Source: Parcubacteria bacterium C7867-007
GTDB lineage: Bacteria > Patescibacteriota > Minisyncoccia > Phycocordibacterales > Phycocordibacteraceae
Assembly (NCBI GenBank): GCA_001189195.1
Contig: LFCQ01000003.1
Coordinates: forward strand, 7,059-71,058
DNA length: 64,000 bases
Direction of reading: 5' to 3'
Part shown: one piece after another, positions 2-45,836 of the stretch
How the letters are laid out: every line of letters starts with the position of its first letter
Numbering within the stretch: position 1 is the stretch's first letter
Translations under genes and position numbers: made by a program
The notes under the pieces: model-generated
Told to the model about the DNA's origin: nothing
Seen by the model: the letters and a program-made list of their open reading frames with translations, nothing else
Database searches by the model: none

Positions 2-601
2 AACACTTCAGGGGCATTGGGTGGTGTTTCTCCTTCTGAATCAGCTCTGAACTTCTACACACAATTCTCTGATCCTGCGAAGACGGTGTATTCCTGGAAC
101 AATGCGCTCCCTGAAGCAAGACAAGCATTTATTTCAGGAGACCTTGCACTCTATGTGGGATTTGCCTCAGAGGCACCCTTCCTCAAGGCATCTAATCCAA
201 ATCTTGATTTTGATATGACGCATGTACCTCAGCCTGCAACGAGTCAGTCTCGTATGACGTACGGCAAGGTATATGCGCTCTCAGTTCCAAAAGCATCTGC
301 TAATCCTAATGGTGCTATAGCAGTGGCACGGGTATTGAGTAGTAAGGAGGAGGGAGGACAGGTTGCACGGGTACTCTCAATGGCACCTGCACAACGAGCA
401 CTCTTGGCACCCTCTGCTACCGACCCGTATCAAGCTATCTACTACCCCGACGCTCTCATTGCCAAGGGTTGGCTATCCCCATCACCTACGAATACGGACA
501 CTATATTTGCCGCTATGATAGGAGATATAACCAGCGGTAGATCTACGGTGCGTGAGGCGCTCAACCGAGCAGGCCAGGCACTTGATTCTGCACTGCAATA
601 A
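2..601 (+). CDS. 5'-truncated extracellular solute-binding protein (ABC transporter substrate-binding, family-1-like); the reading frame is open to the window edge
   Basis: Long ORF in a frame that continues to position 2. The C-terminal region has the composition and architecture of periplasmic solute-binding proteins. No database search was possible. Confidence 0.35.
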   Translation, partial: NTSGALGGVSPSESALNFYTQFSDPAKTVYSWNNALPEARQAFISGDLALYVGFASEAPFLKASNPNLDFDMTHVPQPATSQSRMTYGKVYALSVPKASANPNGAIAVARVLSSKEEGGQVARVLSMAPAQRALLAPSATDPYQAIYYPDALIAKGWLSPSPTNTDTIFAAMIGDITSGRSTVREALNRAGQALDSALQ

Positions 602-609
602 TCTCACCC

Positions 610-867
610 ATGCTTACGAACCCGCTTCAGTTTGACTCACTTCCAGAACTCCTCACTGGGGTATTAAGTGGACTGGTTGAAATTGGAGTGATTGTTCTCA
701 TCATCGCTTTTGTCTGGGTGGGTTTCTCATTTGTCCGTGCGCAGGGAAAGCCAGCCGAACTTGAGAAAGCAAAGGCAGCTTTTCTCTGGACGGTGATTGG
801 TGGCGCCATACTTCTTGGTGCACAGGGAATCGCAACGCTCGTTGAAGCTACGGTAACCGGCCTATGA
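610..867 (+). CDS. small 2-TM pilin-like protein, paralog 1 (TrbC/VirB2-like architecture; weakest member of the array)
   Basis: 85 aa with two hydrophobic helices separated by a short charged loop (AQGKPAELEKAK). It starts 9 bp after the upstream gene and overlaps the next gene by 4 bp (ATGA). Same architecture as the four downstream paralogs. Confidence 0.4.
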   Translation: MLTNPLQFDSLPELLTGVLSGLVEIGVIVLIIAFVWVGFSFVRAQGKPAELEKAKAAFLWTVIGGAILLGAQGIATLVEATVTGL

Positions 868-1334
868 CCTACACACGCAGCACAGGCATACTCCTAACCC
901 TTATAGCGGGCTTATTCCTCTTTGCTGCTACGACGACACAGGCGCAGACATGCACTCCGTCTTGTGGTACAGGAATGATCTGTGTGTATGAAGGATCTAA
1001 TGGATACACTGCAACATGTATAAAGGCTGCAGCTAGTGACGGTACGGTAGATGTGATTGAAGTGACCGCTACCGCAAAGTGTTCAGGAAAGTCTCTTTGT
1101 GCACTGGTGAACAACACTATTATTCCGATAGGTAACAGTATTGTTGGGTTGCTGTTTGCAGTGGCATTCCTCTTGTTTATCTATGGAATGTTTAAATACT
1201 TCTTCCTTAAGGGAGGAGATCCTAAAGCACGTTCAGAGGGCAGGATGTTCATGCTATGGAGTATTATTGCCTTTGCGGTGATGTTCTCCGTATGGGGACT
1301 AGTGAATCTCATCATTAATATAATTCCGACATAG
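864..1334 (+). CDS. secreted Cys-rich domain fused to a 2-TM pilin-like core (paralog 2)
   Basis: Signal peptide followed by a Cys-rich module (CTPSCGTGMICVYEG...CIKAA...CSGKSLC). Then helix 1, the loop GGDPKARSEGR, and helix 2 (SVWGLVNL). The motif is shared with ORFs at 1337, 1882 and 2300. Confidence 0.55.
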   Translation: MTYTRSTGILLTLIAGLFLFAATTTQAQTCTPSCGTGMICVYEGSNGYTATCIKAAASDGTVDVIEVTATAKCSGKSLCALVNNTIIPIGNSIVGLLFAVAFLLFIYGMFKYFFLKGGDPKARSEGRMFMLWSIIAFAVMFSVWGLVNLIINIIPT

Positions 1335-1336
1335 GT

Positions 1337-1783
1337 ATGGGTATACAGAACTTGATTGCGAGCAGTATTAACTTTATTAACAATGTGCTCGTGCCGTTCA
1401 TATTCGCTCTTGCCTTTGCATTCTTCTTGGTGCGGGTGTTCCAGTTCTTCTTTGTTAAAGGAACGGACCCAAAGGCACGGGTAGAGGGAAGGAACTTTAT
1501 TATTGGCTCCATCATTGCTCTCGCGGTAATGGTTTCTGTGTGGGGTCTCGTGAACCTTGTTGCCGGTACCTTCCGTCTAGATCGTAATCAGCCACGACTC
1601 CCAATATTCAATGCGGGAGGAGGTTCATCTGGTGGTTTCTTGGGTGGTTCAGGAAACGATGAAAGGATTCCTGCGGGCACATCAGATTCAGCAATTCCTG
1701 CAGGATCTGCACAAACAAGCCCATCTACTTCAGGTGGTGACAACTGTTTTATTAACAATGATGGTGAAAACATTTGTCTCTAG
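1337..1783 (+). CDS. 2-TM pilin-like protein with Gly/Ser-rich C-terminal tail (paralog 3)
   Basis: Helix 1, the loop KGTDPKARVEGR, and helix 2 (SVWGLVNL), followed by a low-complexity G/S tail ending in a Cys pair. It starts 3 bp after the upstream stop. Confidence 0.55.
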   Translation: MGIQNLIASSINFINNVLVPFIFALAFAFFLVRVFQFFFVKGTDPKARVEGRNFIIGSIIALAVMVSVWGLVNLVAGTFRLDRNQPRLPIFNAGGGSSGGFLGGSGNDERIPAGTSDSAIPAGSAQTSPSTSGGDNCFINNDGENICL

Positions 1784-1881
1784 CACAATAGCGTTGTCCC
1801 CACTCGCGCATTCTTCATATTGACGATGCGTTTGAGGGGTTTATCCTATACCTTGTACCTAATACCTATATTTGTATCTCT

Positions 1882-2235
1882 ATGAAAACACTTGCCTACA
1901 TAGGCGCAGCATCCGCTCTTCCGTTTATTGCGTTTGCGCAGAACGTAAACAGCGTTCAGGATCTCGCGTCGTTCATCATCAGCTTGATCAATAACGTAGC
2001 GGTACCGCTCGTATTTGCGCTCGCATTCATCGTATTTATCTGGGGCGTGTTCCGCTACTTCATTCTTGGTGGTAGCGATCCTAAGAAGCGCGATGAAGGT
2101 CGCCAGCTTATGATCTGGGGCATCGTTGGTTTCGCATTGATGGTTTCTGTGTGGGGTCTCGTACGTATCCTCACCGGTTCTGTGAACCTTAACAATGCAC
2201 CGCTTGAGGTACAGCCAGTTCGTCAGGTTCGTTAA
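1882..2235 (+). CDS. 2-TM pilin-like protein with signal peptide (paralog 4; closest to the TrbC/VirB2 / T4SS-pilin architecture)
   Basis: Signal peptide (…AFAQN), helix 1, the loop GGSDPKKRDEGRQ, and helix 2 (MVSVWGLVRIL). Followed by a rho-independent terminator. Confidence 0.6.
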   Translation: MKTLAYIGAASALPFIAFAQNVNSVQDLASFIISLINNVAVPLVFALAFIVFIWGVFRYFILGGSDPKKRDEGRQLMIWGIVGFALMVSVWGLVRILTGSVNLNNAPLEVQPVRQVR

Positions 2236-2258
2236 GCAAGGTTTCATTCTCCACTAAG

Positions 2259-2290
2259 AAAGCCGCTCCTTAGGAGCGGCTTTCTGCTAT
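2259..2290 (+). terminator. rho-independent terminator after pilin-like paralog 4
   Basis: Inverted repeat agccgctcc/ggagcggct with a 3-nt loop, followed by a T-rich tract. Confidence 0.6.
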
Positions 2291-2299
2291 CATAAACAC

Positions 2300-2551
2300 A
2301 TGGACGCATTTCATACTTTCCTGGACAATGTGCAGCGTGAGATCCTAACCCCTATTGTCGCGGTTATTGCACTCGCTGCTTTCATTCTCTTTATATACGG
2401 TATGGTGAAGTTTATATACAATGCTGGTGATGCAGCAAAACGAGCAGAGGGGCAGAAGCAGATGCTGTATGGAATCATCGGACTCGCTATTATGTTTGGT
2501 GCAAATGCACTTGTGAACCTTCTTCAAGGCACGGTATCGTCTCTATTCTAA
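2300..2551 (+). CDS. 2-TM pilin-like protein (paralog 5)
   Basis: 83 aa with helix 1, the loop NAGDAAKRAEGQKQ, and helix 2 (GANALVNLL). Same architecture as the neighbouring paralogs. Confidence 0.5.
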   Translation: MDAFHTFLDNVQREILTPIVAVIALAAFILFIYGMVKFIYNAGDAAKRAEGQKQMLYGIIGLAIMFGANALVNLLQGTVSSLF

Positions 2552-2600: not shown

Positions 2601-3275
2601 CTAGGGAACAGTGATGACGGCGATGTTCACCAGCATCGGATCTTGTTCTTCAGCACTTCCGCGCTGAAATCCGACAGCAGTACATCGCTTCTGCGTTGTC
2701 CATATCGAGCGCTCGCCGGTCTCTGCATCTTCGCAGTGCAGAATGAACGGCGTGTTCTCTGGCTTCTTCATCCCACAGTATTCGGGGAATCGAAACCAGA
2801 ATGGCTCCTCTCCCCGCACACGAATGGGTACGACCGGCTGCTCGTTGCACACGGGCGGTCCAGGGGGTGCAGGCACCTCCTGAACTTCCTCTTCAGGTTC
2901 AGCTTGCGCTTGTTCCTGAGGAGGAGTGCGGGGTGCTGAGTGCGTTGGTGTTTGATCCACAAACAACAGTTGAAACAAGAACCAACCGACAACACCGATG
3001 GCCAGGATGGCCAGGATGAGCAGTGCAGTTCGTAGCGGAGGCCCCATGCCCGTTTTGGACGCCGGAGACTTCGCAGGTTTCACCGCCATAGTTGTCGGTG
3101 TGACGACAACGACCTTTGGTTGAGACTGATTGGTGTTTCCACCCTTCAATCTCCGAGCAGGCCCTTTCTTTTTCAATCTCCGCAGGAGCGTCACACCAAA
3201 GGCAATGACGATCAAAACGAAGATAACCCACTCCCAAAAGATGATTGATTTCAGGAAGTTAAGCCACTCAGGCAT
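2601..3275 (-). CDS. Pro-rich single-pass membrane protein, function unknown
   Basis: The start is reassigned to the ATG at 3275, which has the RBS aagggg 6 nt upstream; the longer ORF to 3353 has no RBS. One TM helix, a Pro/Gln/Glu-rich linker, and a C-terminal domain containing cysteines. Confidence 0.45.
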   Translation of the reverse strand: MPEWLNFLKSIIFWEWVIFVLIVIAFGVTLLRRLKKKGPARRLKGGNTNQSQPKVVVVTPTTMAVKPAKSPASKTGMGPPLRTALLILAILAIGVVGWFLFQLLFVDQTPTHSAPRTPPQEQAQAEPEEEVQEVPAPPGPPVCNEQPVVPIRVRGEEPFWFRFPEYCGMKKPENTPFILHCEDAETGERSIWTTQKRCTAVGFQRGSAEEQDPMLVNIAVITVP

Positions 3276-4626
3276 CGGTTTTCCCCTTAGGTTCTGGAGT
3301 CTTATTCTTCCCGAGCACACCCTCGAGCATGTCGTCGACGGCGCCTCGGACATCGATACCGAGAATCAACTTAGCGTTGTCACCGATGATTCTCTCAGCG
3401 GCTTCAGCACCATAGATCTCTCGACCCTCAAGTCCAAGGGTATTGGCTTCGTACTTCTTGCCGTCAGCGATTGCTGTACGGCGGGCGAGTTCTACAGCTG
3501 CCGCAGCGGCACCGGCCTTGGTCGTCACATAAGCGTCGGCGTCGGCTTTGGTGTTGCTGGCTAGTTGGGCTGCGAGGGCCTTACCGATGCCAGTGAGTTC
3601 CTTGCTCAGGTCGTGGCTCAGATCAGGGGCGAGGAGTGTGATCTCCAATATTTTTATACCCCAGTCATTGGTTAGTGTTTCAAGTTCTTCCTCAACCAAT
3701 TCACTGATTGTGATCAAGTCCTTGACCACGCGGCCAATTGGTCGCTGCAGGAATTGCTGCGTTACGGCGCGTGACCATGTGTCGTTTAGTTGTCGGTTAG
3801 CATAGGCAAGCATATCTTCTGGAGTGTCACCTTCCATTGCCATGGCAAAGGACATGACATCTTCGATCTTGTAGCGGACCGTACCAGTGACTGTGGTGGT
3901 CATCTGGATGTTGAGTGGGCCGAGCTCCAAGCCTTTTCTACCAGGCTCAGGTGTACCGCTAATTGGACGGAATGGCCGCACCATGCCCGGAGGCAGGTCA
4001 ACTTTGTCGTCTCCGTGGAAAACCTCCTCAGGTTCACCAGGGATTTGGATTTGCTGAGCTGCGCGAGGCAGCCGAACCATACCCATCCAGGGCACAAGCC
4101 GGAACGTCAGACCAACTTTCGGTTGCCGAATAGGTCTATCGAAGAAAGTGATACTTACGAGATCTTTATATCCGACCTTGTCGATCGAGAAAAGAGTTTG
4201 CAAGATTGCGCCCCCGACGACGAGGTACCACGGATGGCCGAAGAAAGACATGACGATCGCAAGCAGGGCCAGTGCAGCATAGTTGAGGATGATGACTAGT
4301 TTGTAGAGTGCCTTGTCAACTTTCACTGCAGACTTACTCTTACGAGGTTTGTCGGCAGCTCCAGTCTCGGAGGTTTCTTCAGAGTCTTCATCCTGCTCAG
4401 CATCCGTCTCACGTTGCTGGCGACGCTTCTCGAGATGTTCTCGGAACTTGCGCGCCAGAAACTGAGACAAAGTCCTCACGGACTTACCAAGCCATGCGAG
4501 GAAGCCGTCACGAAGACGGGCGATTTCCGATTGGGGCTTTGCCTGGGAAATGACCCAGACAGATACCGCAATAAAGATCCACGGCCCGACTTGAGCCAGG
4601 ACCTGAATCCAATTATTGGTTTCCAT
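3268..4626 (-). CDS. SPFH/Band-7 (stomatin/prohibitin/HflKC-like) membrane protein
   Basis: N-terminal TM segments followed by an SPFH-like core and an Ala-rich coiled-coil tail (…AAQLASNTKADADAYVTTKAGAAAAAVELARR…). The N-terminal region is acidic. Confidence 0.7.
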   Translation of the reverse strand: METNNWIQVLAQVGPWIFIAVSVWVISQAKPQSEIARLRDGFLAWLGKSVRTLSQFLARKFREHLEKRRQQRETDAEQDEDSEETSETGAADKPRKSKSAVKVDKALYKLVIILNYAALALLAIVMSFFGHPWYLVVGGAILQTLFSIDKVGYKDLVSITFFDRPIRQPKVGLTFRLVPWMGMVRLPRAAQQIQIPGEPEEVFHGDDKVDLPPGMVRPFRPISGTPEPGRKGLELGPLNIQMTTTVTGTVRYKIEDVMSFAMAMEGDTPEDMLAYANRQLNDTWSRAVTQQFLQRPIGRVVKDLITISELVEEELETLTNDWGIKILEITLLAPDLSHDLSKELTGIGKALAAQLASNTKADADAYVTTKAGAAAAAVELARRTAIADGKKYEANTLGLEGREIYGAEAAERIIGDNAKLILGIDVRGAVDDMLEGVLGKNKTPEPKGKTDA

Positions 4627-14146: not shown

Positions 14147-14327
14147 GGTCAGTCTCCTTGAATGGTTGGTACGCGTGAGCGCACCTTCCATAGAAGAAGA
14201 AAGAGTAATCGGAGGTGCGCGGTGATAGCCTGCAATCAGCCTTTATCTTCGATGACGCATTATGTCCTCCGTACGTTAATGTGCAGTACAGAAAGCATAA
14301 AAACACGTATAATATGAAAAGTCAATG

Positions 14328-14398
14328 CGGGCCCACGAGGAATCGAACCTCGGCCGACGGTTTTGGAGACCGACGTTCTACCATTAAACTATAGGCCC
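14328..14398 (-). tRNA. tRNA-Trp (anticodon CCA)
   Basis: Cloverleaf GGGCCTATAGTTTAATGGTAGAAC…, anticodon loop CTCCAAA, T-arm CGAGGTTCGATTCCTCG, discriminator G. Confidence 0.85.
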
Positions 14399-14473
14399 TG
14401 TATAGGAACGATAGCAGAACCGTGCGCTACGGGCAAAGCTGCTTATTTGAGGTGGTACGATACAAGTAACAAT

Positions 14474-15430
14474 ATGGTGGCTAAACGCGCGCTTTTAAGT
14501 TTTGTTCTCTTTACTCTTGTTTCAGTGCCGCTTTCTGTGTTTGCTGCGGAGACAAGCTTCTTTGGTCCGATCATTCCTCAAGAAGGAGATAAGTGTTATT
14601 GCCCTGGTAAGGCAATGGACTGGGGGTGTGCACTCGAAGTGTTTCAGAATGTGTTGAACGCCCTAATTTCACTTGGAGTAGTAGCGGTGGTGTTTTTCAT
14701 CGGATGGGCAGGGTTCCTGCTTATGACGGGTGGATCAAATCCAGCAACACGCACGAAAGCAAAGAATCGTATGCTCAGTGGGGTGGTTGGCCTCGCAGTT
14801 ATTCTCGGCGCCTTCCTTATCGTTGATACGGTAATGAAGATCCTCTATAACCCAGATACTGCTCTTGAAAAAGGTACCTTCGGTCCTTGGAATGAGATTC
14901 TCTCTGGTGCAGAAGATAACTATTGCGTGGTTGTGAACGAGACTCCCGGTGTGCTGAATAATGGAAGTGTGATGGATATCATAAGCAACGCACTTAATCT
15001 TGGCACCACTAATTCATCAACCAAAGGTGCTGCCACCACTCCCGGTGGAACAATATCTGGAGGATATACCTATGATCCTGGTATTAAAGCCCAGACTGTT
15101 CATGCATCAGGTGAGCTCACCGCCCTGCTAAGTTGTATGAGACCAAAACTTCCCGCAGGTGTTGGTCGTATATCTTCGATCTCAGATAGTGCCATTGTGA
15201 ACGGAAGCAAAACCTTTAATAAGTGTGCAGCGTCAGGCTGTGCACACACCATTAATTCATGTCACTACGGAGGCAAAGCATGTGTGGGGCGCTCACTTGC
15301 TGTTGATTTTGGTGATGAAGACAATGCAAGCGTGCTTAAGGCAGCTGCTATTTCGTGTGGAGCAAACACAGCAGTGAATGAAGGCGATCACCTTCATGTG
15401 AGTGTGGGGAAGTCGTGTGGTTGTAACTGA
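14474..15430 (+). CDS. secreted pilin-like 2-TM module fused to a LAS-type (M15/M23-like) zinc peptidase-like domain; putative peptidoglycan peptidase
   Basis: Signal peptide with mature N-terminus AETSFFGPIIPQ…C.C. Then helix 1, the loop GGSNPATRTKAKNRM, helix 2, a Thr/Gly linker, and a C-terminal …SCHYGGKACVGRSLAVDFGDED…GDHLHVSVG (an H…D plus HxH zinc-ligand pattern). The start is moved to 14474 to avoid overlap with tRNA-Trp. Confidence 0.55.
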   Translation: MVAKRALLSFVLFTLVSVPLSVFAAETSFFGPIIPQEGDKCYCPGKAMDWGCALEVFQNVLNALISLGVVAVVFFIGWAGFLLMTGGSNPATRTKAKNRMLSGVVGLAVILGAFLIVDTVMKILYNPDTALEKGTFGPWNEILSGAEDNYCVVVNETPGVLNNGSVMDIISNALNLGTTNSSTKGAATTPGGTISGGYTYDPGIKAQTVHASGELTALLSCMRPKLPAGVGRISSISDSAIVNGSKTFNKCAASGCAHTINSCHYGGKACVGRSLAVDFGDEDNASVLKAAAISCGANTAVNEGDHLHVSVGKSCGCN

Positions 15431-16455
15431 TGTCGTACAATAGAAATACTTATATGGGAATGCGCGCTTTTCTTTTCTCTTCCAGTGCTGCAGCACTGGC
15501 ATCTGTGCCCTTTGCAGTCTTTGCGGCAGAGACAAGCTTCTTTGGTCCTATCATTCCACAGATTGGTGAGTGTGTATGCGAAGGAAGTGCAATGGATTGG
15601 GGATGTGTACTGGTTGTTGCGCAAGGATTTCTAGGAGCACTCGTTTCCTTTGGTGTTCTGGCAGTGGTCTTCTACATTGGCTATGCAGGCTTCACTCTTA
15701 TAACGAGTGGTGGTAACCCGGCAACCCGTACGAAAGCAAAGAATCGTATGCTCAGTGCCGTAGTTGGTCTCGCGGTTATTCTCGGGGCATTCCTTATCGT
15801 TGATACGGTAATGAAGATTCTCTATAACCCAGATACTGCTCTTGAAAGCGGCACCTTTGGTCCTTGGAATGAAATCTTTGTAGGAGGAGAAGAAAACTAT
15901 TGTGTTGCAGTGAATATGAATCCAGGTGTGCTGAATGATGGAAGTGTGGCAGACATTATAAGCAACGCACTTAATCCAGGCACCACTACCTCATCGACAA
16001 TGGGTGGAGGGACTGCTCCGTCAGGTTCAGGTGCTCCTAGCTCAGCGGGAGGAAGGTGTCAGGTTAAAACCAGTGGACCATGCGCAACCTCAAACTTCAC
16101 GGCAGCATTTGGTGCAGCGGCAGGTCAAGCCTCGCAAATCTGTTCTGCAGAAAGTGGTAACGGAACTCTTCTTGAAGGAGATAGAACCACTTCAGGCAAG
16201 CCGGTGTCGTTCGGACTCTTTCAGATTAATATAACGGCGCATCCTGTTGCTGGACTGCAGTGTCCAAAAGCATTTGATCGCTTGTTCACGGGGTCAAACA
16301 AGAACGTTAAAATACTAGATGCGGATCTCTATCAAAAGTGTAGAACGGCTGCTCTTAATAGTTCTAATAATGCAGCGGTTGCCGCTAAAATATTCAAGGG
16401 CGATAAAAATAGCTGGAGGCAGTGGAGTACCCGTAGAACGTGTGGATTACCCTAA
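15430..16455 (+). CDS. secreted pilin-like 2-TM module fused to a lytic transglycosylase (SLT/VirB1-like) domain
   Basis: TGATG overlap with the upstream gene. The mature N-terminus is identical to that gene (AETSFFGPIIPQ…) and it has the same GGNPATRTKAKNRM loop. C-terminal …CSAESGNG…SGKPVSFGLFQINIT… resembles the family-1 lytic transglycosylase catalytic motif (ES…GLMQ). Confidence 0.55.
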   Translation: MSYNRNTYMGMRAFLFSSSAAALASVPFAVFAAETSFFGPIIPQIGECVCEGSAMDWGCVLVVAQGFLGALVSFGVLAVVFYIGYAGFTLITSGGNPATRTKAKNRMLSAVVGLAVILGAFLIVDTVMKILYNPDTALESGTFGPWNEIFVGGEENYCVAVNMNPGVLNDGSVADIISNALNPGTTTSSTMGGGTAPSGSGAPSSAGGRCQVKTSGPCATSNFTAAFGAAAGQASQICSAESGNGTLLEGDRTTSGKPVSFGLFQINITAHPVAGLQCPKAFDRLFTGSNKNVKILDADLYQKCRTAALNSSNNAAVAAKIFKGDKNSWRQWSTRRTCGLP

Positions 16456-41080: not shown

Positions 41081-43831
41081 ATGGCACTGGAAGGACCAGC
41101 GCGACCAATACGGTCGCCAGAAGAAGAACTTGCATACCTGCGTGCAGAAGTGCTCGCAAAGGAACAAGAACTTGCTTCACTGCGCGTGGATAAACCACGT
41201 GAGACTGTCATACATGAACGCATTCTGCACCATGCAGAACAGCCGGGACACCAGGTACTTGATTCGAAGTACCAGATGAAGCAGGAGGAGAAGCACGAGC
41301 TTGCACTTAACCTTGAGCCTCGGGCTGATGATGAGACCATGGAGGAACTCCGAAAGATTATCGAGACAAAAGGCATTCATAATGCGTTCGGTGTACTTGA
41401 GAAGCTTAAAAACCCGCACCTAGAAGATGATTTCCATCGGTTCCTTGTGCAGTATCTTCTTGCAGGTATGCCACTTGGCATGAATGAGAAGCAGCCAGAG
41501 TGGAAAGGTCTCCATATGACGCTGTATGAAGTCTCCTTGCCTGAGGCAAACGCTGATGATGAATCACGGAGGAAATCTCTTAAGGAATTGATATCTGCTA
41601 TGGAGCAGTTCTATTCCGGTATGCTTGCAACAGAGCATGCGGTTGCAGGAGAGCCTGCACACTTCACGCTTGAACTAGCTGTACCGGTAAACAAAGCTCA
41701 TTTGATGTTTTATGCCGCTGTTCCAAACACCAAGCGTGATTTGTTTGAGAAACAACTGCTCGCCATCTTCCCAAGTGCACACATCGCTCCACAACCAAAC
41801 GACTACAACATCTTCACGAATGGTGGTGCATCATTTGGTTCGGTAGCGGCACTAGGAAGGCCGGGTATGCTTCCTTTAAAGGATTACGGAGACTTTGATT
41901 ATGATCCAATCAATTCGATCCTAAACGCCTTTGCAAAGATTGCCCCTGAAGGTGAGGGTGCATCACTGCAAATCGTTATTGCGCCACAAGGAGATAGATT
42001 CATAAAACACTACAGGAAGGTATTGAGTGCACTTCGTAGCGGAGAGACGAGTCATACCGCCTTTCATCTTCCCGAGTCTTTCTTGGGAGAAGCAGCACGC
42101 GATATCACTAAGACTTTTTTCAGCAAACAGAAGACAGAGGATGACTCTCAAGAGAAGGCACGACAAATTGAATCTAATAAAGGAGAAATTGAGCATGTTG
42201 AGCGAAAGCTAGCGGCACAAATAGTCGCTACCAATATGAGATTGGTAGTTTCCTCAATGGATGGAAATAGAGCTGAACAGATATTGGGTGAGCTCGAGTC
42301 TGCGTTCCATCAGTTTGAGAACCCAACGAGTAACCGGATTGAATGGAAACGAGTGTCGCGTAACACCCAGCGTACCCTCTTTCATGACTTCACCTTTCGC
42401 ACCTTTGAAAAGGGCAGTGAAGTACCTCTTTCAATTAAGGAGCTCACCACCATCTTCCATTTCCCTCCTTCAGGTATTGCATCATCTCCGCATCTAAAGC
42501 AATCTCGCTTCACCGCAGCAGCTGCTCCACTAGAACTTCCTCATGAAGGTATTCAACTTGGTACTAATACGTATCGTGGGCAAGACACGGATGTGTTGCT
42601 GGCACCCGAAGATCGTCTCCGTCATTTGTATGTGATCGGACAAACTGGTACCGGTAAGACATCATTTATGAAAACGCTCATTGAGCAGGACATAAAAGCG
42701 GGGAATGGTGTTTGTTTCATTGATCCCCATGGCAATGACATTCTTGATGTGCTGGCATGCGTGCCTCCTGAGCGATATGAGGATGTTATATACTTTGACC
42801 CCGCATATCTTGATCGCCCTTTTGGTCTCAATCTCCTGGAATACGATCCTGCATTCCCTGAACAGAAGACATTCATAGTTAACGAGCTCCTTGCAATCTT
42901 CCGTCGTTTGTATGGAGATGTACCTGAATCCATGGGCCCTGCCTTTGAACAGTATTTCCGCAACGCAACATTGCTCGTGATGGAAGACCCTGCTTCAGGT
43001 TCAACTCTCATGGATATTGGTCGGGTGCTTTCAAATAAAGACTTTAGAGATCTAAAACTATCTCGGAGCATGAATCCGGTAGTGAATCAGTTCTGGAATG
43101 AAATAGCCTCACAGGCTGAAGGTGAGGCATCACTTGCAAACATTGTGCCGTACATCACAAACAAGTTTGATGACTTCACCGCGAATGATTTCATGCGTCC
43201 TATCATTGGCCAACAAGAATCATCCTTCAACTTCCGGGACATCATGGACAAGAGAAAGATTCTTCTGGTGAATCTTTCTAAGGGTCGTTTGGGTGAACGG
43301 AATGCAAACCTCATTGGTTTGATCATGGTGGGCAAACTCTTTATGGCGGCACTTTCTCGTGCAGATGATCCACGGGCAGTGTTCCCTCCGTTCTATGTGT
43401 ATATAGATGAATTCCAAAACATAACCACAGACTCAATTCCCGCTATCCTCTCTGAAGCACGCAAATACAAGCTTTCCATGACCATGGCACACCAGTTCTT
43501 GGCACAGGTTGATGAAAAGACTCGTGATGCAGTATTCGGGAACGTGGGATCCATGGCTGTGTTCCGAGTTGGCCAGGAGGATGGAGAATTCTTTGCAAAA
43601 CAATTTGCACCCACGTTCTCTGCGCCAGACTTCATTAACATTGAAAACTACAACGCATACGTGCGTATGCTTGCAAATGGTGTTCCTCAAAAGCCATTCA
43701 ACATCCACTCACTAAAGCCCGTTGAAGGAAATCAAAATCAGATTGATGACTTACGAGAACTTTCATACCTCACGTATGGACGTGATCGTGCTACTGTTGA
43801 GGGAGCAATTAGAGCAAAATATCTTTCGTAA
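41081..43831 (+). CDS. FtsK/HerA-superfamily ATPase of type-IV-secretion type (VirB4/TraC/TrbE-like or VirD4/TraD-like); no N-terminal TM helices
   Basis: 916 aa with a mid-protein Walker A (LYVIGQTGTGKTSFMKTL) followed by CFIDPHGNDIL. Walker B/C-terminal block YVYIDEFQNITT…EARKYKLSMTMAHQFLAQV…AVFGNVGSMAVFRVG, as in T4SS ATPases. Confidence 0.6.
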   Translation: MALEGPARPIRSPEEELAYLRAEVLAKEQELASLRVDKPRETVIHERILHHAEQPGHQVLDSKYQMKQEEKHELALNLEPRADDETMEELRKIIETKGIHNAFGVLEKLKNPHLEDDFHRFLVQYLLAGMPLGMNEKQPEWKGLHMTLYEVSLPEANADDESRRKSLKELISAMEQFYSGMLATEHAVAGEPAHFTLELAVPVNKAHLMFYAAVPNTKRDLFEKQLLAIFPSAHIAPQPNDYNIFTNGGASFGSVAALGRPGMLPLKDYGDFDYDPINSILNAFAKIAPEGEGASLQIVIAPQGDRFIKHYRKVLSALRSGETSHTAFHLPESFLGEAARDITKTFFSKQKTEDDSQEKARQIESNKGEIEHVERKLAAQIVATNMRLVVSSMDGNRAEQILGELESAFHQFENPTSNRIEWKRVSRNTQRTLFHDFTFRTFEKGSEVPLSIKELTTIFHFPPSGIASSPHLKQSRFTAAAAPLELPHEGIQLGTNTYRGQDTDVLLAPEDRLRHLYVIGQTGTGKTSFMKTLIEQDIKAGNGVCFIDPHGNDILDVLACVPPERYEDVIYFDPAYLDRPFGLNLLEYDPAFPEQKTFIVNELLAIFRRLYGDVPESMGPAFEQYFRNATLLVMEDPASGSTLMDIGRVLSNKDFRDLKLSRSMNPVVNQFWNEIASQAEGEASLANIVPYITNKFDDFTANDFMRPIIGQQESSFNFRDIMDKRKILLVNLSKGRLGERNANLIGLIMVGKLFMAALSRADDPRAVFPPFYVYIDEFQNITTDSIPAILSEARKYKLSMTMAHQFLAQVDEKTRDAVFGNVGSMAVFRVGQEDGEFFAKQFAPTFSAPDFINIENYNAYVRMLANGVPQKPFNIHSLKPVEGNQNQIDDLRELSYLTYGRDRATVEGAIRAKYLS

Positions 43832-43841
43832 CAATTGATGT

Positions 43842-45836
43842 ATGTCTGAATGGCCTCCAAATAGAACACCAACACAGAAGGAAGAGGTACCTGAAACTGT
43901 TGAAGTTGAACAGGTATCACGAACCCACAATGAACATGTTGATACGCATACGGAATCTGCAGAAGTCTTTCAAGCAGCAAACGAAGATTTCGAACACGAA
44001 GCACAACTCCTAGAGAAAGGTGCCACTGATCAATATATGGAAATCGCAGCTCATATTCGAGCTGCAGGTGTTGAGCCTAATGATATTAAGGATGCATGGG
44101 GTCCAGCATACAGTCTCCTAACACGTATGCGCGGAGCCGCTCATTCCTATGGAACTGCAAAAACAAGCGCAGATCGGAAGAAGTTGTTGAAGCTATACAA
44201 CAAGCTAGAAAATGAACTTCTCACTGATATTGCACCAAAAACAAAGGCTGCAACTGAAGCATGGTTAGAGAATCATGAGCCAAAGGAAGTATCACCAGAT
44301 GCTGGGTTGGAGGAACTAGGTGATCTTGAACATGTTGAGACTCCATCTGAGATTGTGACTGAACCAGAGGTTCAAGAAACAGATGGACCTTCTCCTGATA
44401 CCAGTAACGGAGTTAAGGGTATTGATAGTGATGCAGATGAGCCAATCACTATGCTCAACCCAGCGCTTAATAAGTTGTTTGAGGGCAAGCAGAAGAAGCC
44501 CAAAGCTCGTACTCCGCGTGTAAAACCACTTGTATTCAGTGAGCCTGAACCATGGATGACGACATACAAAGGAGGTACAGACAGTATTCCTGAGACCCAC
44601 GCCGAACAGAAGGCCGCATTGCGTCGTAGTGTAGAGGAAATCCAGAAGGACCTAGATACTAAGCAGGCAATTCTAAAAGCCTTTTACGCAAATGCTGCAA
44701 AGACTGAAGGTATCAAAGAAACCAAACGCTTCCAGGAACATAATGGTGGGAAGGTTGAGGACAGTCTTGAAAAGAAGATTGTTGATACCGAAGCAGAGGT
44801 TATCAAGCTTGAGAAAGAGCGAGCTGAAGCAGCTGCAGCTCCACACATGGAAACTGCAGTAGCTGCTGCAGAGATCGCCAGCGATGTTGTTGCAGATCAG
44901 TCGGAGCAGGAAGTGAATGATAGTAACGTGTTTGAGCTAGCAGACGCACGAGACGCACGTATGAAAGCGCGTCAGCAGAGTATCGTAAAGAAGCATGGCA
45001 AGGGAATGGTAGGTGCTCTGGGTGCACTCGTTGTTTCATTCTTCGGATTCTCCTCAACAGAGAAAAGTACTGCAGCGGAGAATGCCGAGAACACTGCACG
45101 ATTTACTTCAACGGGGGCAGTACAAGAGCAAAAGGCAGAGGGTGAAAGAATCTTGGCAGGCGGAAAACCAAAACCAGTAGTGATTCCTTCCTCGAGAAAG
45201 ACACGTGTCACACAATCTGAGGTTGATACTCCAGAGATTGATCGCACCAGTGATATTGAATTGATCAATAGGGAACAATTAAAGGTAGACAGACCCCTAG
45301 AGGAACACGGTCTCCCAGTAGGCACCGATGCAAGGATTAGTGACTTCTTGAAGGAGATTAAAGAAAGAGATGCGCGCCCAACAGTATTAACCTCAGTCTC
45401 TGAATCAACTGTTTCCGATGGGGCACCAGAATTAAAGTCAGGTCCGGAATCTGTATCCGACCTTGCAGAAATGAATGTAGGTATTCTTGATGAAAAGAAA
45501 GTCTATACCAATAGACACGGAGAAACTATTGATCTGAGTGTTCCTAAGCAGTACGCATGGCGTATGCCTGGAAGCAAGGAGACATTCCCTGTGGTAGATG
45601 GAGGTACTCAAGAAGAACGTGAAGCATGGGCAGATGAGTTTTTAAACAACAACCCAGGCTTTGAATACATACTAGTTCCAACACGTAACCAAGTATCAGG
45701 AGAGGTGGAGTTGCGAATGCGAACCCGGGAGAAGAATGTTAGTTCAGGGCTGGTTGGTCCCGTGTGGCTTAAGAACACAGGATCCGAGCTTCCTGTACCA
45801 AGCCCTGAAGATTATGTGCGTCGCCCTGGGACCTAG
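43842..45836 (+). CDS. large acidic, predicted disordered protein with one central TM helix; 10 bp downstream of the ATPase
   Basis: 664 aa, Glu/Asp/Lys-rich, with a single hydrophobic segment (GMVGALGALVVSFFGF). Confidence 0.5.
   Translation: MSEWPPNRTPTQKEEVPETVEVEQVSRTHNEHVDTHTESAEVFQAANEDFEHEAQLLEKGATDQYMEIAAHIRAAGVEPNDIKDAWGPAYSLLTRMRGAAHSYGTAKTSADRKKLLKLYNKLENELLTDIAPKTKAATEAWLENHEPKEVSPDAGLEELGDLEHVETPSEIVTEPEVQETDGPSPDTSNGVKGIDSDADEPITMLNPALNKLFEGKQKKPKARTPRVKPLVFSEPEPWMTTYKGGTDSIPETHAEQKAALRRSVEEIQKDLDTKQAILKAFYANAAKTEGIKETKRFQEHNGGKVEDSLEKKIVDTEAEVIKLEKERAEAAAAPHMETAVAAAEIASDVVADQSEQEVNDSNVFELADARDARMKARQQSIVKKHGKGMVGALGALVVSFFGFSSTEKSTAAENAENTARFTSTGAVQEQKAEGERILAGGKPKPVVIPSSRKTRVTQSEVDTPEIDRTSDIELINREQLKVDRPLEEHGLPVGTDARISDFLKEIKERDARPTVLTSVSESTVSDGAPELKSGPESVSDLAEMNVGILDEKKVYTNRHGETIDLSVPKQYAWRMPGSKETFPVVDGGTQEEREAWADEFLNNNPGFEYILVPTRNQVSGEVELRMRTREKNVSSGLVGPVWLKNTGSELPVPSPEDYVRRPGT

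Follow-up and report, generated by a model that had tools for sequence, protein, structure and literature searches.

We analyzed a 64-kb stretch of the genome of Parcubacteria bacterium C7867-007 (GCA_001189195.1), referred to below as the window, and in particular a run of small genes close to its start that an earlier note had described as a tandem array of divergent pilin-like paralogues. Parcubacteria bacterium C7867-007 is a groundwater metagenome-assembled genome (MAG) (PMC4508563), and a survey of type IV secretion systems (T4SS) assigned it to the class Paceibacteria (PMC12102498). Five consecutive open reading frames (ORFs), all on the forward strand, were found at positions 610 to 2551, exactly as proposed, and code for proteins of 85, 156, 148, 117 and 83 residues (ORF1 to ORF5; Table 1). 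The product of ORF4 is identical to AB202_00055 of the same bacterium.

As judged from hydropathy and alignments, all five proteins share a core of about 75 residues, formed by two hydrophobic helices and a short polar loop, and the cores are 18-49% identical to one another. A loop and helix motif, G(G/T)(D/S)PKxRxEGR ... SVWGLV(N/R)(L/I), had been attributed to every member, but we found it only in ORF2, ORF3 and ORF4; ORF1 (QGKPAELEKAK ... GAQGIATL) and ORF5 (AGDAAKRAEGQ ... GANALVNL) have degenerate versions. The spacing of the genes, said to consist of overlaps or gaps of 3-9 bp, likewise holds for a part of the array. The junctions measure -4, +2, +98 and +64 bp, so that ORF1, ORF2 and ORF3 are tightly packed and the last two gaps are wide. 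At the DNA level, a single stretch of similarity was detected inside the array (42 nt, 1510-1551 versus 2121-2162, 86% identical), and it encodes the ...MVSVWGLV... section of helix 2 in ORF3 and ORF4.

The additions to the core differ from gene to gene in the manner claimed. ORF1 and ORF5 are bare, ORF2 has a Cys-rich N-terminal domain (Cys at positions 30, 34, 40, 52, 73 and 79), ORF3 ends in a Gly/Ser-rich tail (65% G/S/T/P/N/A, two Cys) and ORF4 has a signal peptide. In an AlphaFold2 (AF2) model of ORF4, the two helices span residues 25-62 and 67-100, with predicted local distance difference test (pLDDT) values of 80-89 across the hairpin. An antisense ORF covers ORF4, and similar ones are open in 52 related loci; most likely, it is a by-product of codon composition in a conserved membrane-protein gene, without sign of coding.

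Table 1. Positions, within the window, of the array genes, of predicted signals and of other features discussed in the text.
Feature	Position	Strand	Description
SBP gene, 3' part	17-601	+	Membrane-anchored MalE-like solute-binding protein (SBP), 438 aa in full; starts upstream of the window
ORF1	610-867	+	85 aa; bare two-helix hairpin, without signal peptide; "first position" paralogue
ORF2	864-1334	+	156 aa; signal-peptide-like N-terminus, six-Cys N-terminal domain, hairpin; 4-nt overlap with ORF1
ORF3	1337-1783	+	148 aa; hairpin, 63-aa Gly/Ser-rich tail with terminal Cys pair; starts 2 nt past ORF2
ORF4 promoter-like region	1796-1847	+	GTCCCCA (1796-1802), 17 nt, TTGAC (1820-1824), 17 nt, TATCCT (1842-1847)
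Antisense ORF	1846-2247	-	133 aa; spans all of ORF4
ORF4	1882-2235	+	117 aa; signal peptide (..AFA|Q), hairpin, short tail
Terminator-like hairpin	2257-2285	+	Between ORF4 and ORF5; 13-bp stem, -23.9 kcal/mol, z = -5.35
ORF5	2300-2551	+	83 aa; bare hairpin, without signal peptide; "last position" paralogue
Hairpin between convergent genes	2568-2591	both	Between ORF5 and the 250-aa protein gene; z = -4.9 (+), -6.9 (-)
Membrane protein gene	2601-3353	-	250 aa; convergent to the array
SPFH/Band-7-like protein gene	3268-4626	-	452 aa
tRNA-Trp	14327-14398	-	
Fusion 1 (AB202_00150)	14474-15430	+	318 aa; signal peptide, hairpin, C-terminal Cys/His-rich domain; PF18895, 37.3 bits
Fusion 2	15430-16455	+	Hairpin, C-terminal lysozyme-like SLT_3 domain; PF18895, 28.2 bits
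ATPase gene	41081-43831	+	916 aa; soluble, VirD4/DUF87-type
Acidic protein gene	43842-45836	+	664 aa

Comparison with Pfam placed the array in a known family. PF18895 (T4SS_pilin; gathering threshold, 26.6 bits) recognized ORF1, ORF2, ORF4 and ORF5 with scores of 37.1, 42.0, 44.7 and 43.3 bits, and ORF3 scored 24.6 bits (E = 2.6e-5), just under the threshold. With PF04956 (TrbC/VirB2; threshold, 27.9 bits), ORF1 passed at 28.4 bits, ORF5 (23.1 bits) and ORF4 (15.9 bits) remained below, and no match was returned for ORF2 or ORF3. All five proteins thus match PF18895 and one passes PF04956, which bears out the TrbC/VirB2-like call for which this kind of check had been suggested. In a larger set, consisting of the array proteins of the window and of 15 related species scanned singly (E <= 0.01), PF18895 matched 80 of 80 and PF04956 matched 32 of 80, with a best E-value of 8e-8. 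A profile of the window family recovered exactly seven members among 794 six-frame ORFs, each with E <= 1e-30 and the next ORF at E = 0.018; ORF3 scored 100.8 bits. The gap in E-values indicates that the array is real, far beyond chance. The seven members are the five array genes and two larger proteins at 14.4-16.4 kb, so that the paralogy across the window proposed for these two hydrolase fusions was recovered as well. Outside the window, a profile of the five proteins reached 18,702 cluster representatives at E <= 1e-3, and several relatives are labelled "pilin" by NCBI.

Other searches set the limits of this assignment. No match was found by tblastn when ORF1 and ORF5 were compared with 72,556 plasmids, and homology to classical pilins is therefore visible by profiles only. 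The ORF4 family profile, run against all PDB chains, returned just a de novo designed channel (E = 3). In NCBIfam, four of the five proteins were closest to the Mbov_0395 family (NF045849) of Mycoplasma integrative and conjugative elements. These are also small two-helix proteins of wall-less or monoderm T4SS, but the array proteins scored 20.4-33.5 bits against a cut-off of 40 and are not members. The class III signal G-F-T-L-x-E is not present in any of the seven window proteins, and an identity as type IV pilins was rejected for this reason. Judged by sequence, the array proteins belong to the VirB2/TrbC-superfamily "T4SS_pilin" family PF18895, which is typical of Patescibacteria (candidate phyla radiation).

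To follow the array across relatives we used a scan with the ORF4 alignment, keeping one genome per species, which gave 80 loci from Paceibacteria MAGs. In 74 species, and in nearly all loci with sufficient flanking sequence, the genes lie on one strand in the order SBP gene (438 aa), ORF1-type, two to four middle genes, ORF4-type and ORF5-type. Five is the modal size: five family genes were counted in 55 of 81 loci, six in 17 and seven in 2, and in most of the loci with fewer genes the array is cut by a short contig or flank. A protein and its best cross-species hit shared their place in the array in 90 of 95 cases at the middle positions and in 72-74 of 74 at each of the others (first, second, penultimate, last); ORF1-type orthologues are always first and ORF5-type orthologues always last (74/74). 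Therefore, the five genes are old paralogues with one-to-one orthologues and not the product of a recent or shifting expansion. Relative to the closest relative, C7867-008, the ratio of nonsynonymous to synonymous substitution rates (dN/dS) was 0.10-0.19 for each array gene, a rough figure because dS itself was 1.0-2.3. There was no sign of recent duplication among the five genes and, with a single shared DNA stretch of 42 nt, none of gene conversion. Nor were switching repeats or invertible elements seen in the array; the only inverted repeats found within 1700-2700 are the two hairpins and, inside ORF4, one imperfect palindrome of 15 nt (73% complementary). We regard the array, on these comparisons, as an ancient, fixed set of paralogues. 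The variable subunits and antigenic variation considered in the earlier note are at odds with the position-specific orthologues, the modal number of five, the low dN/dS and the lack of gene conversion.

The paralogues are not equally conserved. ORF4 is the most conserved, with a median core identity to its orthologues of 63%, as against 41-49% for the other four, and its signal peptide (AFA|Q) and both helices are kept in 25 orthologues. Most orthologues of ORF1 have a signal peptide and an N-terminal extension, unlike the bare ORF1 of the window. The add-ons that vary between lineages are found mainly at the first position (N-extensions of up to 256 residues) and at the middle positions (C-extensions of up to 360 residues), whereas the penultimate and last proteins have a constant build across lineages.

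A consensus scan found a promoter-like site in the gap that precedes ORF4, with the ATG of ORF4 34 nt downstream of the TATCCT element. This gap measures 85-100 bp in the middle half of the 74 species. The three-part layout ([T/G/C]TCC[A/C]CA, 17 nt, TTGAC, 17 nt, TATCCT) was present with fixed spacings in 44 of 45 related loci and, within loci of 12 kb, is essentially restricted to the region ahead of ORF4. We interpret the site as a predicted promoter of the sigma-70 type, conserved and dedicated to ORF4, with an extra upstream box. Possibly, the box, 17 nt upstream of the -35 hexamer, is the site of a regulator. Elsewhere in the window the box had one match (28864, minus strand), without a promoter and at chance level (2.5 expected), and this match was dismissed. 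The spacer between ORF3 and ORF4 was also considered as a structured RNA, an idea that was rejected (z = -1.7; pairing not conserved by eye in relatives), and an Rfam scan of the window returned tRNAs only.

Downstream of ORF4 lies a terminator-like hairpin (Table 1), and in relatives the sequence downstream of the penultimate gene has a lower folding energy than a coding control (median, -30.6 versus -20.7 kcal/mol). A second hairpin follows ORF5; its T-run is on the minus strand only, and it is thus shared with the convergent gene for a 250-residue membrane protein. The statement that the array ends with terminators thus applies to this second hairpin, with the reservation of strand, whereas the other is internal to the array. 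Together, the spacings and signals suggest three transcript units, SBP-ORF1-ORF2-ORF3, ORF4 alone, and ORF5. The convergent membrane protein itself had no family match.

As for topology, a heuristic call gave signal-peptide-like N-termini for ORF2 and ORF4 only. In these two proteins, removal of the signal peptide ahead of two membrane helices would leave both ends outside and the loop inside, and we infer this orientation, with extracellular termini and a cytoplasmic loop as in classical VirB2, for the array proteins. Several features are consistent with it. Every add-on domain and every Cys residue is found either before helix 1 or after helix 2 in the chain; the eight Cys of the five proteins are all accounted for by the N-terminal domain of ORF2 (six) and the tail of ORF3 (two), and what follows helix 2 in both fusion proteins is a domain of a cell-wall-acting type. 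ORF2, the two fusions and distant members of the family also have a pair of Cys immediately ahead of helix 1. The positive-inside rule, which was tried as a test of topology, gave no guidance, since many orthologues have a loop with little or negative net charge.

The two larger members of the family combine the hairpin with an enzyme-like domain. For fusion 1, the longest ORF (14363-15430, plus strand) overlaps the tRNA-Trp gene, and the true start, which the deposited annotation also uses, is Met38 (14474). Its C-terminal domain had no Pfam match. All of 30 homologues have H258, H264, D278 and H308, and at least 90% have H306. When an AF2 model was searched with Foldseek, the top eight PDB matches were Hedgehog N-domains (probability, 0.96-1.0; E = 0.02-0.035). 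We assign the domain with moderate confidence, because these E-values are weak, to the Hedgehog/DD-peptidase (LAS) zinc-peptidase fold, as a putative peptidoglycan peptidase. In fusion 2, PF18896 (SLT_3) scored 25-26 bits, just under its threshold of 27. The two genes share 77% DNA identity over their pilin parts (14522-15029 versus 15502-16006) and thus look like products of a recent duplication, after which one enzymatic domain was replaced by another. In relatives, the same pilin module is fused to SLT, SLT_3 or VanY domains. In Southlakia epibionticum, a peptidase and a lysozyme homologue beside virB4 are essential, as noted in the T4SS survey (PMC12102498); the fusion pair is the equivalent of these two proteins, here welded to pilin modules. 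In other organisms we also found single polypeptides with 2-11 tandem hairpins, each after a Cys pair (P0241, P0242, P0254 and P0323, all predicted proteins). They may have arisen naturally by the joining of array members; the 80 related loci contain none.

The gene immediately upstream of the array is that of the SBP, whose stop codon lies 8 bp ahead of ORF1. Both SBP_bac_8 and SBP_bac_1 match the partial protein (window 17-601) and the full-length protein (L001:6323-7639), an N-terminal transmembrane anchor is visible, and the nearest solved and NCBIfam relatives, all distant, are maltose or oligosaccharide binders. The gene adjoins the array in 73 of 73 measured related loci, the SBP stop lying a median of 2 nt from the first pilin start. 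No gene for an ABC permease or ATPase was found within 6-10 kb in two annotated loci, nor in a neighbourhood clustering of the 80 related loci. Judged by gene order, the SBP seems to be an orphan whose gene is expressed together with the array. The wider neighbourhood is syntenic too, and comprises gyrA, a methyltransferase gene, the SBP gene and the array, with genes for an SPFH protein, alanine racemase (alr) and translation initiation factor IF-2 (infB) on the opposite strand.

Arrays of this kind have been described before. In a survey of 3,035 Patescibacteria genomes, conducted with the Pfam models PF18895 and PF04956, 441 arrays of 2-11 pilin genes were found in 383 assemblies, with a mean identity of 25% and a maximum of 54% (Quinonero-Coronel et al. 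2025, PMC12102498). The published arrays were thus detected with the same Pfam models, and the feature is of a kind already known; Table S1 of the survey lists GCA_001189195.1 with "Presence of VirB4: Yes" (PMC12102498). In S. epibionticum, a predicted pilin series inside the T4SS cluster SEML1_0006-0019 is essential for epibiotic growth according to transposon sequencing (Wang et al. 2023, PMC10633639), a requirement demonstrated for that species only, and a review counts six divergent VirB2-like pilins in the T4SS locus of that organism. The array described here resembles the published ones (PMC12102498; PMC10633639) in its Pfam families, its tandem layout within the range of 2-11 genes, its phylum and its low internal identity. 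It differs from them in its setting, as it is beside neither virB4 nor any other T4SS core gene; instead, it lies among housekeeping genes, downstream of an SBP gene.

With the classical TrbC/VirB2/TraA pilins (PF04956) the array proteins share a hydrophobic two-helix hairpin of about 70 residues, a predicted signal peptide in some members, and homology at the level of profiles. The classical proteins, however, are encoded by a single major pilin gene within a virB or trb operon of a diderm T4SS. Here, a monoderm organism has five paralogues outside any operon of this kind, and there is neither pairwise similarity to plasmid sequences nor a match in fold searches. Bartonella and Anaplasma also have several VirB2-type genes in a row (cited in PMC12102498). 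Those arrays have been read as variation for immune evasion, whereas in the window the paralogues are ancient, occur in a constant order and evolve under purifying selection. What the present work appears to add to the published picture is modest, namely the fixed five-position orthology in Paceibacteria, the predicted ORF4 promoter, the linkage, at a distance in the range of translational coupling, to the gene for the sugar-type SBP, the pilin-anchored peptidase-like and lysozyme-like domains, and the polyprotein relatives. Term searches in the survey paper brought up none of these (PMC12102498).

We favor, with a probability of about 0.6, the view that the array encodes five non-interchangeable subunits of the VirB2 superfamily, ORF4 being the major one, that are assembled into a surface filament or conduit by a T4SS encoded elsewhere. 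The subunits would be inserted in the membrane with both ends outside. ORF4 would be abundant, and ORF1, ORF2, ORF3 and ORF5 would be low-copy partners with distinct structural roles, such as start, tip or adaptor, with ORF2 and ORF3 displaying extracellular modules that vary between lineages. As suggested by the literature, the subunits would then be drawn from the membrane and assembled by a T4SS of the monoderm type, and the product would be a filament or conduit for contact with host cells. ORF4 is the likely major subunit because of its core identity of 63%, its conserved promoter, the conserved gap in front of it and the hairpin after it. The division into major and minor pilins, raised as one option in the earlier note, is thus the best fit among the options, and is still an inference. 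Type IV pili and the pilin sets of type II secretion systems offer an analogy only, in that one abundant subunit is encoded together with fixed, low-copy and differently decorated ones; the array proteins are not homologous to these and lack the class III signal motif.

A number of observations weigh against this view. Neither the window nor any of the 80 related loci has a gene for VirB3, VirB4, VirB6 or VirB8 within 6-10 kb of the array, and the only T4SS-like gene in the 64-kb window codes for a 916-residue soluble ATPase of the VirD4/DUF87 type, 38.5 kb away, whose closest plasmid relatives are DUF87 proteins from mostly non-mobilizable plasmids. Three of the five proteins (ORF1, ORF3 and ORF5) lack a signal peptide according to the same heuristic call, so that the build of a signal peptide plus a two-helix hairpin expected for the array holds for ORF2 and ORF4, and for the other three in its hairpin part. 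The charge of the loop is near zero or negative in many orthologues and not consistently positive. A Foldseek search with the ORF4 model gave no significant match to a solved structure (best E = 2) and no conjugative pilin among the matches. The evidence for ORF4 as the major subunit consists of conservation and promoter signals. The tandem-hairpin polyproteins, unless cleaved, fit poorly with a filament built from monomers drawn out of the membrane. Finally, a T4SS pilus has not been reported as actually sighted in Patescibacteria in the survey (PMC12102498), in the study of S. epibionticum (PMC10633639) or in the review, whose wording is limited to a "potential to elaborate conjugative pili".

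Some of these points would be accommodated if the hairpins stayed in the membrane and formed no pilus, but rather a fixed hetero-oligomer, such as a T4SS ring, a channel collar or a platform, while also acting as membrane anchors for the Cys-rich domain, the Gly/Ser tail, the hydrolases and other such extracellular modules. The pilin module does anchor two hydrolase-like domains in the window, and SLT, SLT_3 and VanY domains in relatives; polypeptides with 2-11 hairpins, that is 4-22 membrane helices, suggest packing side by side in the membrane; a strict make-up of five, with one orthologue per position, suits a defined membrane complex; and the ORF4 model has no match to a solved pilin. We hold this possibility, the main alternative, only tentatively, as the known members of TrbC/VirB2, to which the array proteins are related by profile, polymerize, and a dedicated strong promoter and a terminator for ORF4 suggest an unequal stoichiometry, typical of the major subunit of a filament. 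The polyproteins, moreover, are predicted only and could be processed after synthesis. It also seems conceivable, although we consider it rather doubtful, that the five proteins form a hetero-oligomeric membrane or surface assembly with ORF4 in excess, made together with the SBP and serving to recognize or tap host cells, and not a homopolymeric pilus. The polyproteins with 2-11 hairpins would then be a single-chain version of the same assembly.

Two further explanations appear much weaker. That the genes encode interchangeable variant pilins, for antigenic variation or host-range switching as proposed for the VirB2 arrays of Bartonella and Anaplasma, is in keeping with the high divergence within the array (18-49% identity) and with extracellular add-ons at positions 2 and 3 that differ between lineages, and antigenic variation or host adaptation has been suggested for the pilin arrays of Patescibacteria (PMC12102498). 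Yet one-to-one, position-specific orthology in about 74 species with a modal copy number of five, a dN/dS of 0.10-0.19 for every gene, no recent duplication or gene conversion, and no switching repeats or invertible elements seen in the array make this very unlikely. Fixed orthology and purifying selection therefore favor non-interchangeable subunits. Even less probable, in our opinion, is a device for capture, uptake or sensing, independent of a T4SS, in which the hairpins would be the membrane part and the co-transcribed MalE-like SBP the binding part. All 73 loci measured have the SBP gene immediately ahead of the array (median, 2 nt), no ABC permease or ATPase gene is near it within the 6-10 kb of two annotated loci or in the clustering of the 80 related loci, and the protein resembles oligosaccharide binders. 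Against this, the adjacency may in part be inherited backbone order, because the wider neighbourhood is also syntenic; VirB2-like hairpins are without precedent as a transporter, and the arrays of other Patescibacteria lie inside T4SS clusters, with no SBP gene reported there (PMC12102498; PMC10633639).

The array is of interest because a pilin series is among the T4SS components that are essential for the host-dependent life of the only patescibacterium that is genetically tractable. To this the locus adds, for the Paceibacteria, five position-specific paralogues under purifying selection, a predicted promoter of its own for one of them, and a coupling to an SBP gene instead of virB4. The added points favor different jobs in one structure over interchangeable variants; beyond them, the array is an ordinary instance of a described family.

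Other genes of the window can be mentioned briefly. The 916-residue ATPase matches DUF87 and TraG-D_C and, weakly, TraD/VirD4 models; it was deposited as a "putative VirD4 component" and is 70-90% identical across the Paceibacteria clade. We do not claim it as the missing VirB4, since its matches indicate proteins of the VirD4/TraD type and DUF87 proteins. The next gene codes for an acidic protein of 664 residues without a family match. On the minus strand downstream of the array lies the gene for the SPFH/Band-7-like protein of 452 residues, and an SPFH homologue is found at this place in roughly half of the related loci.

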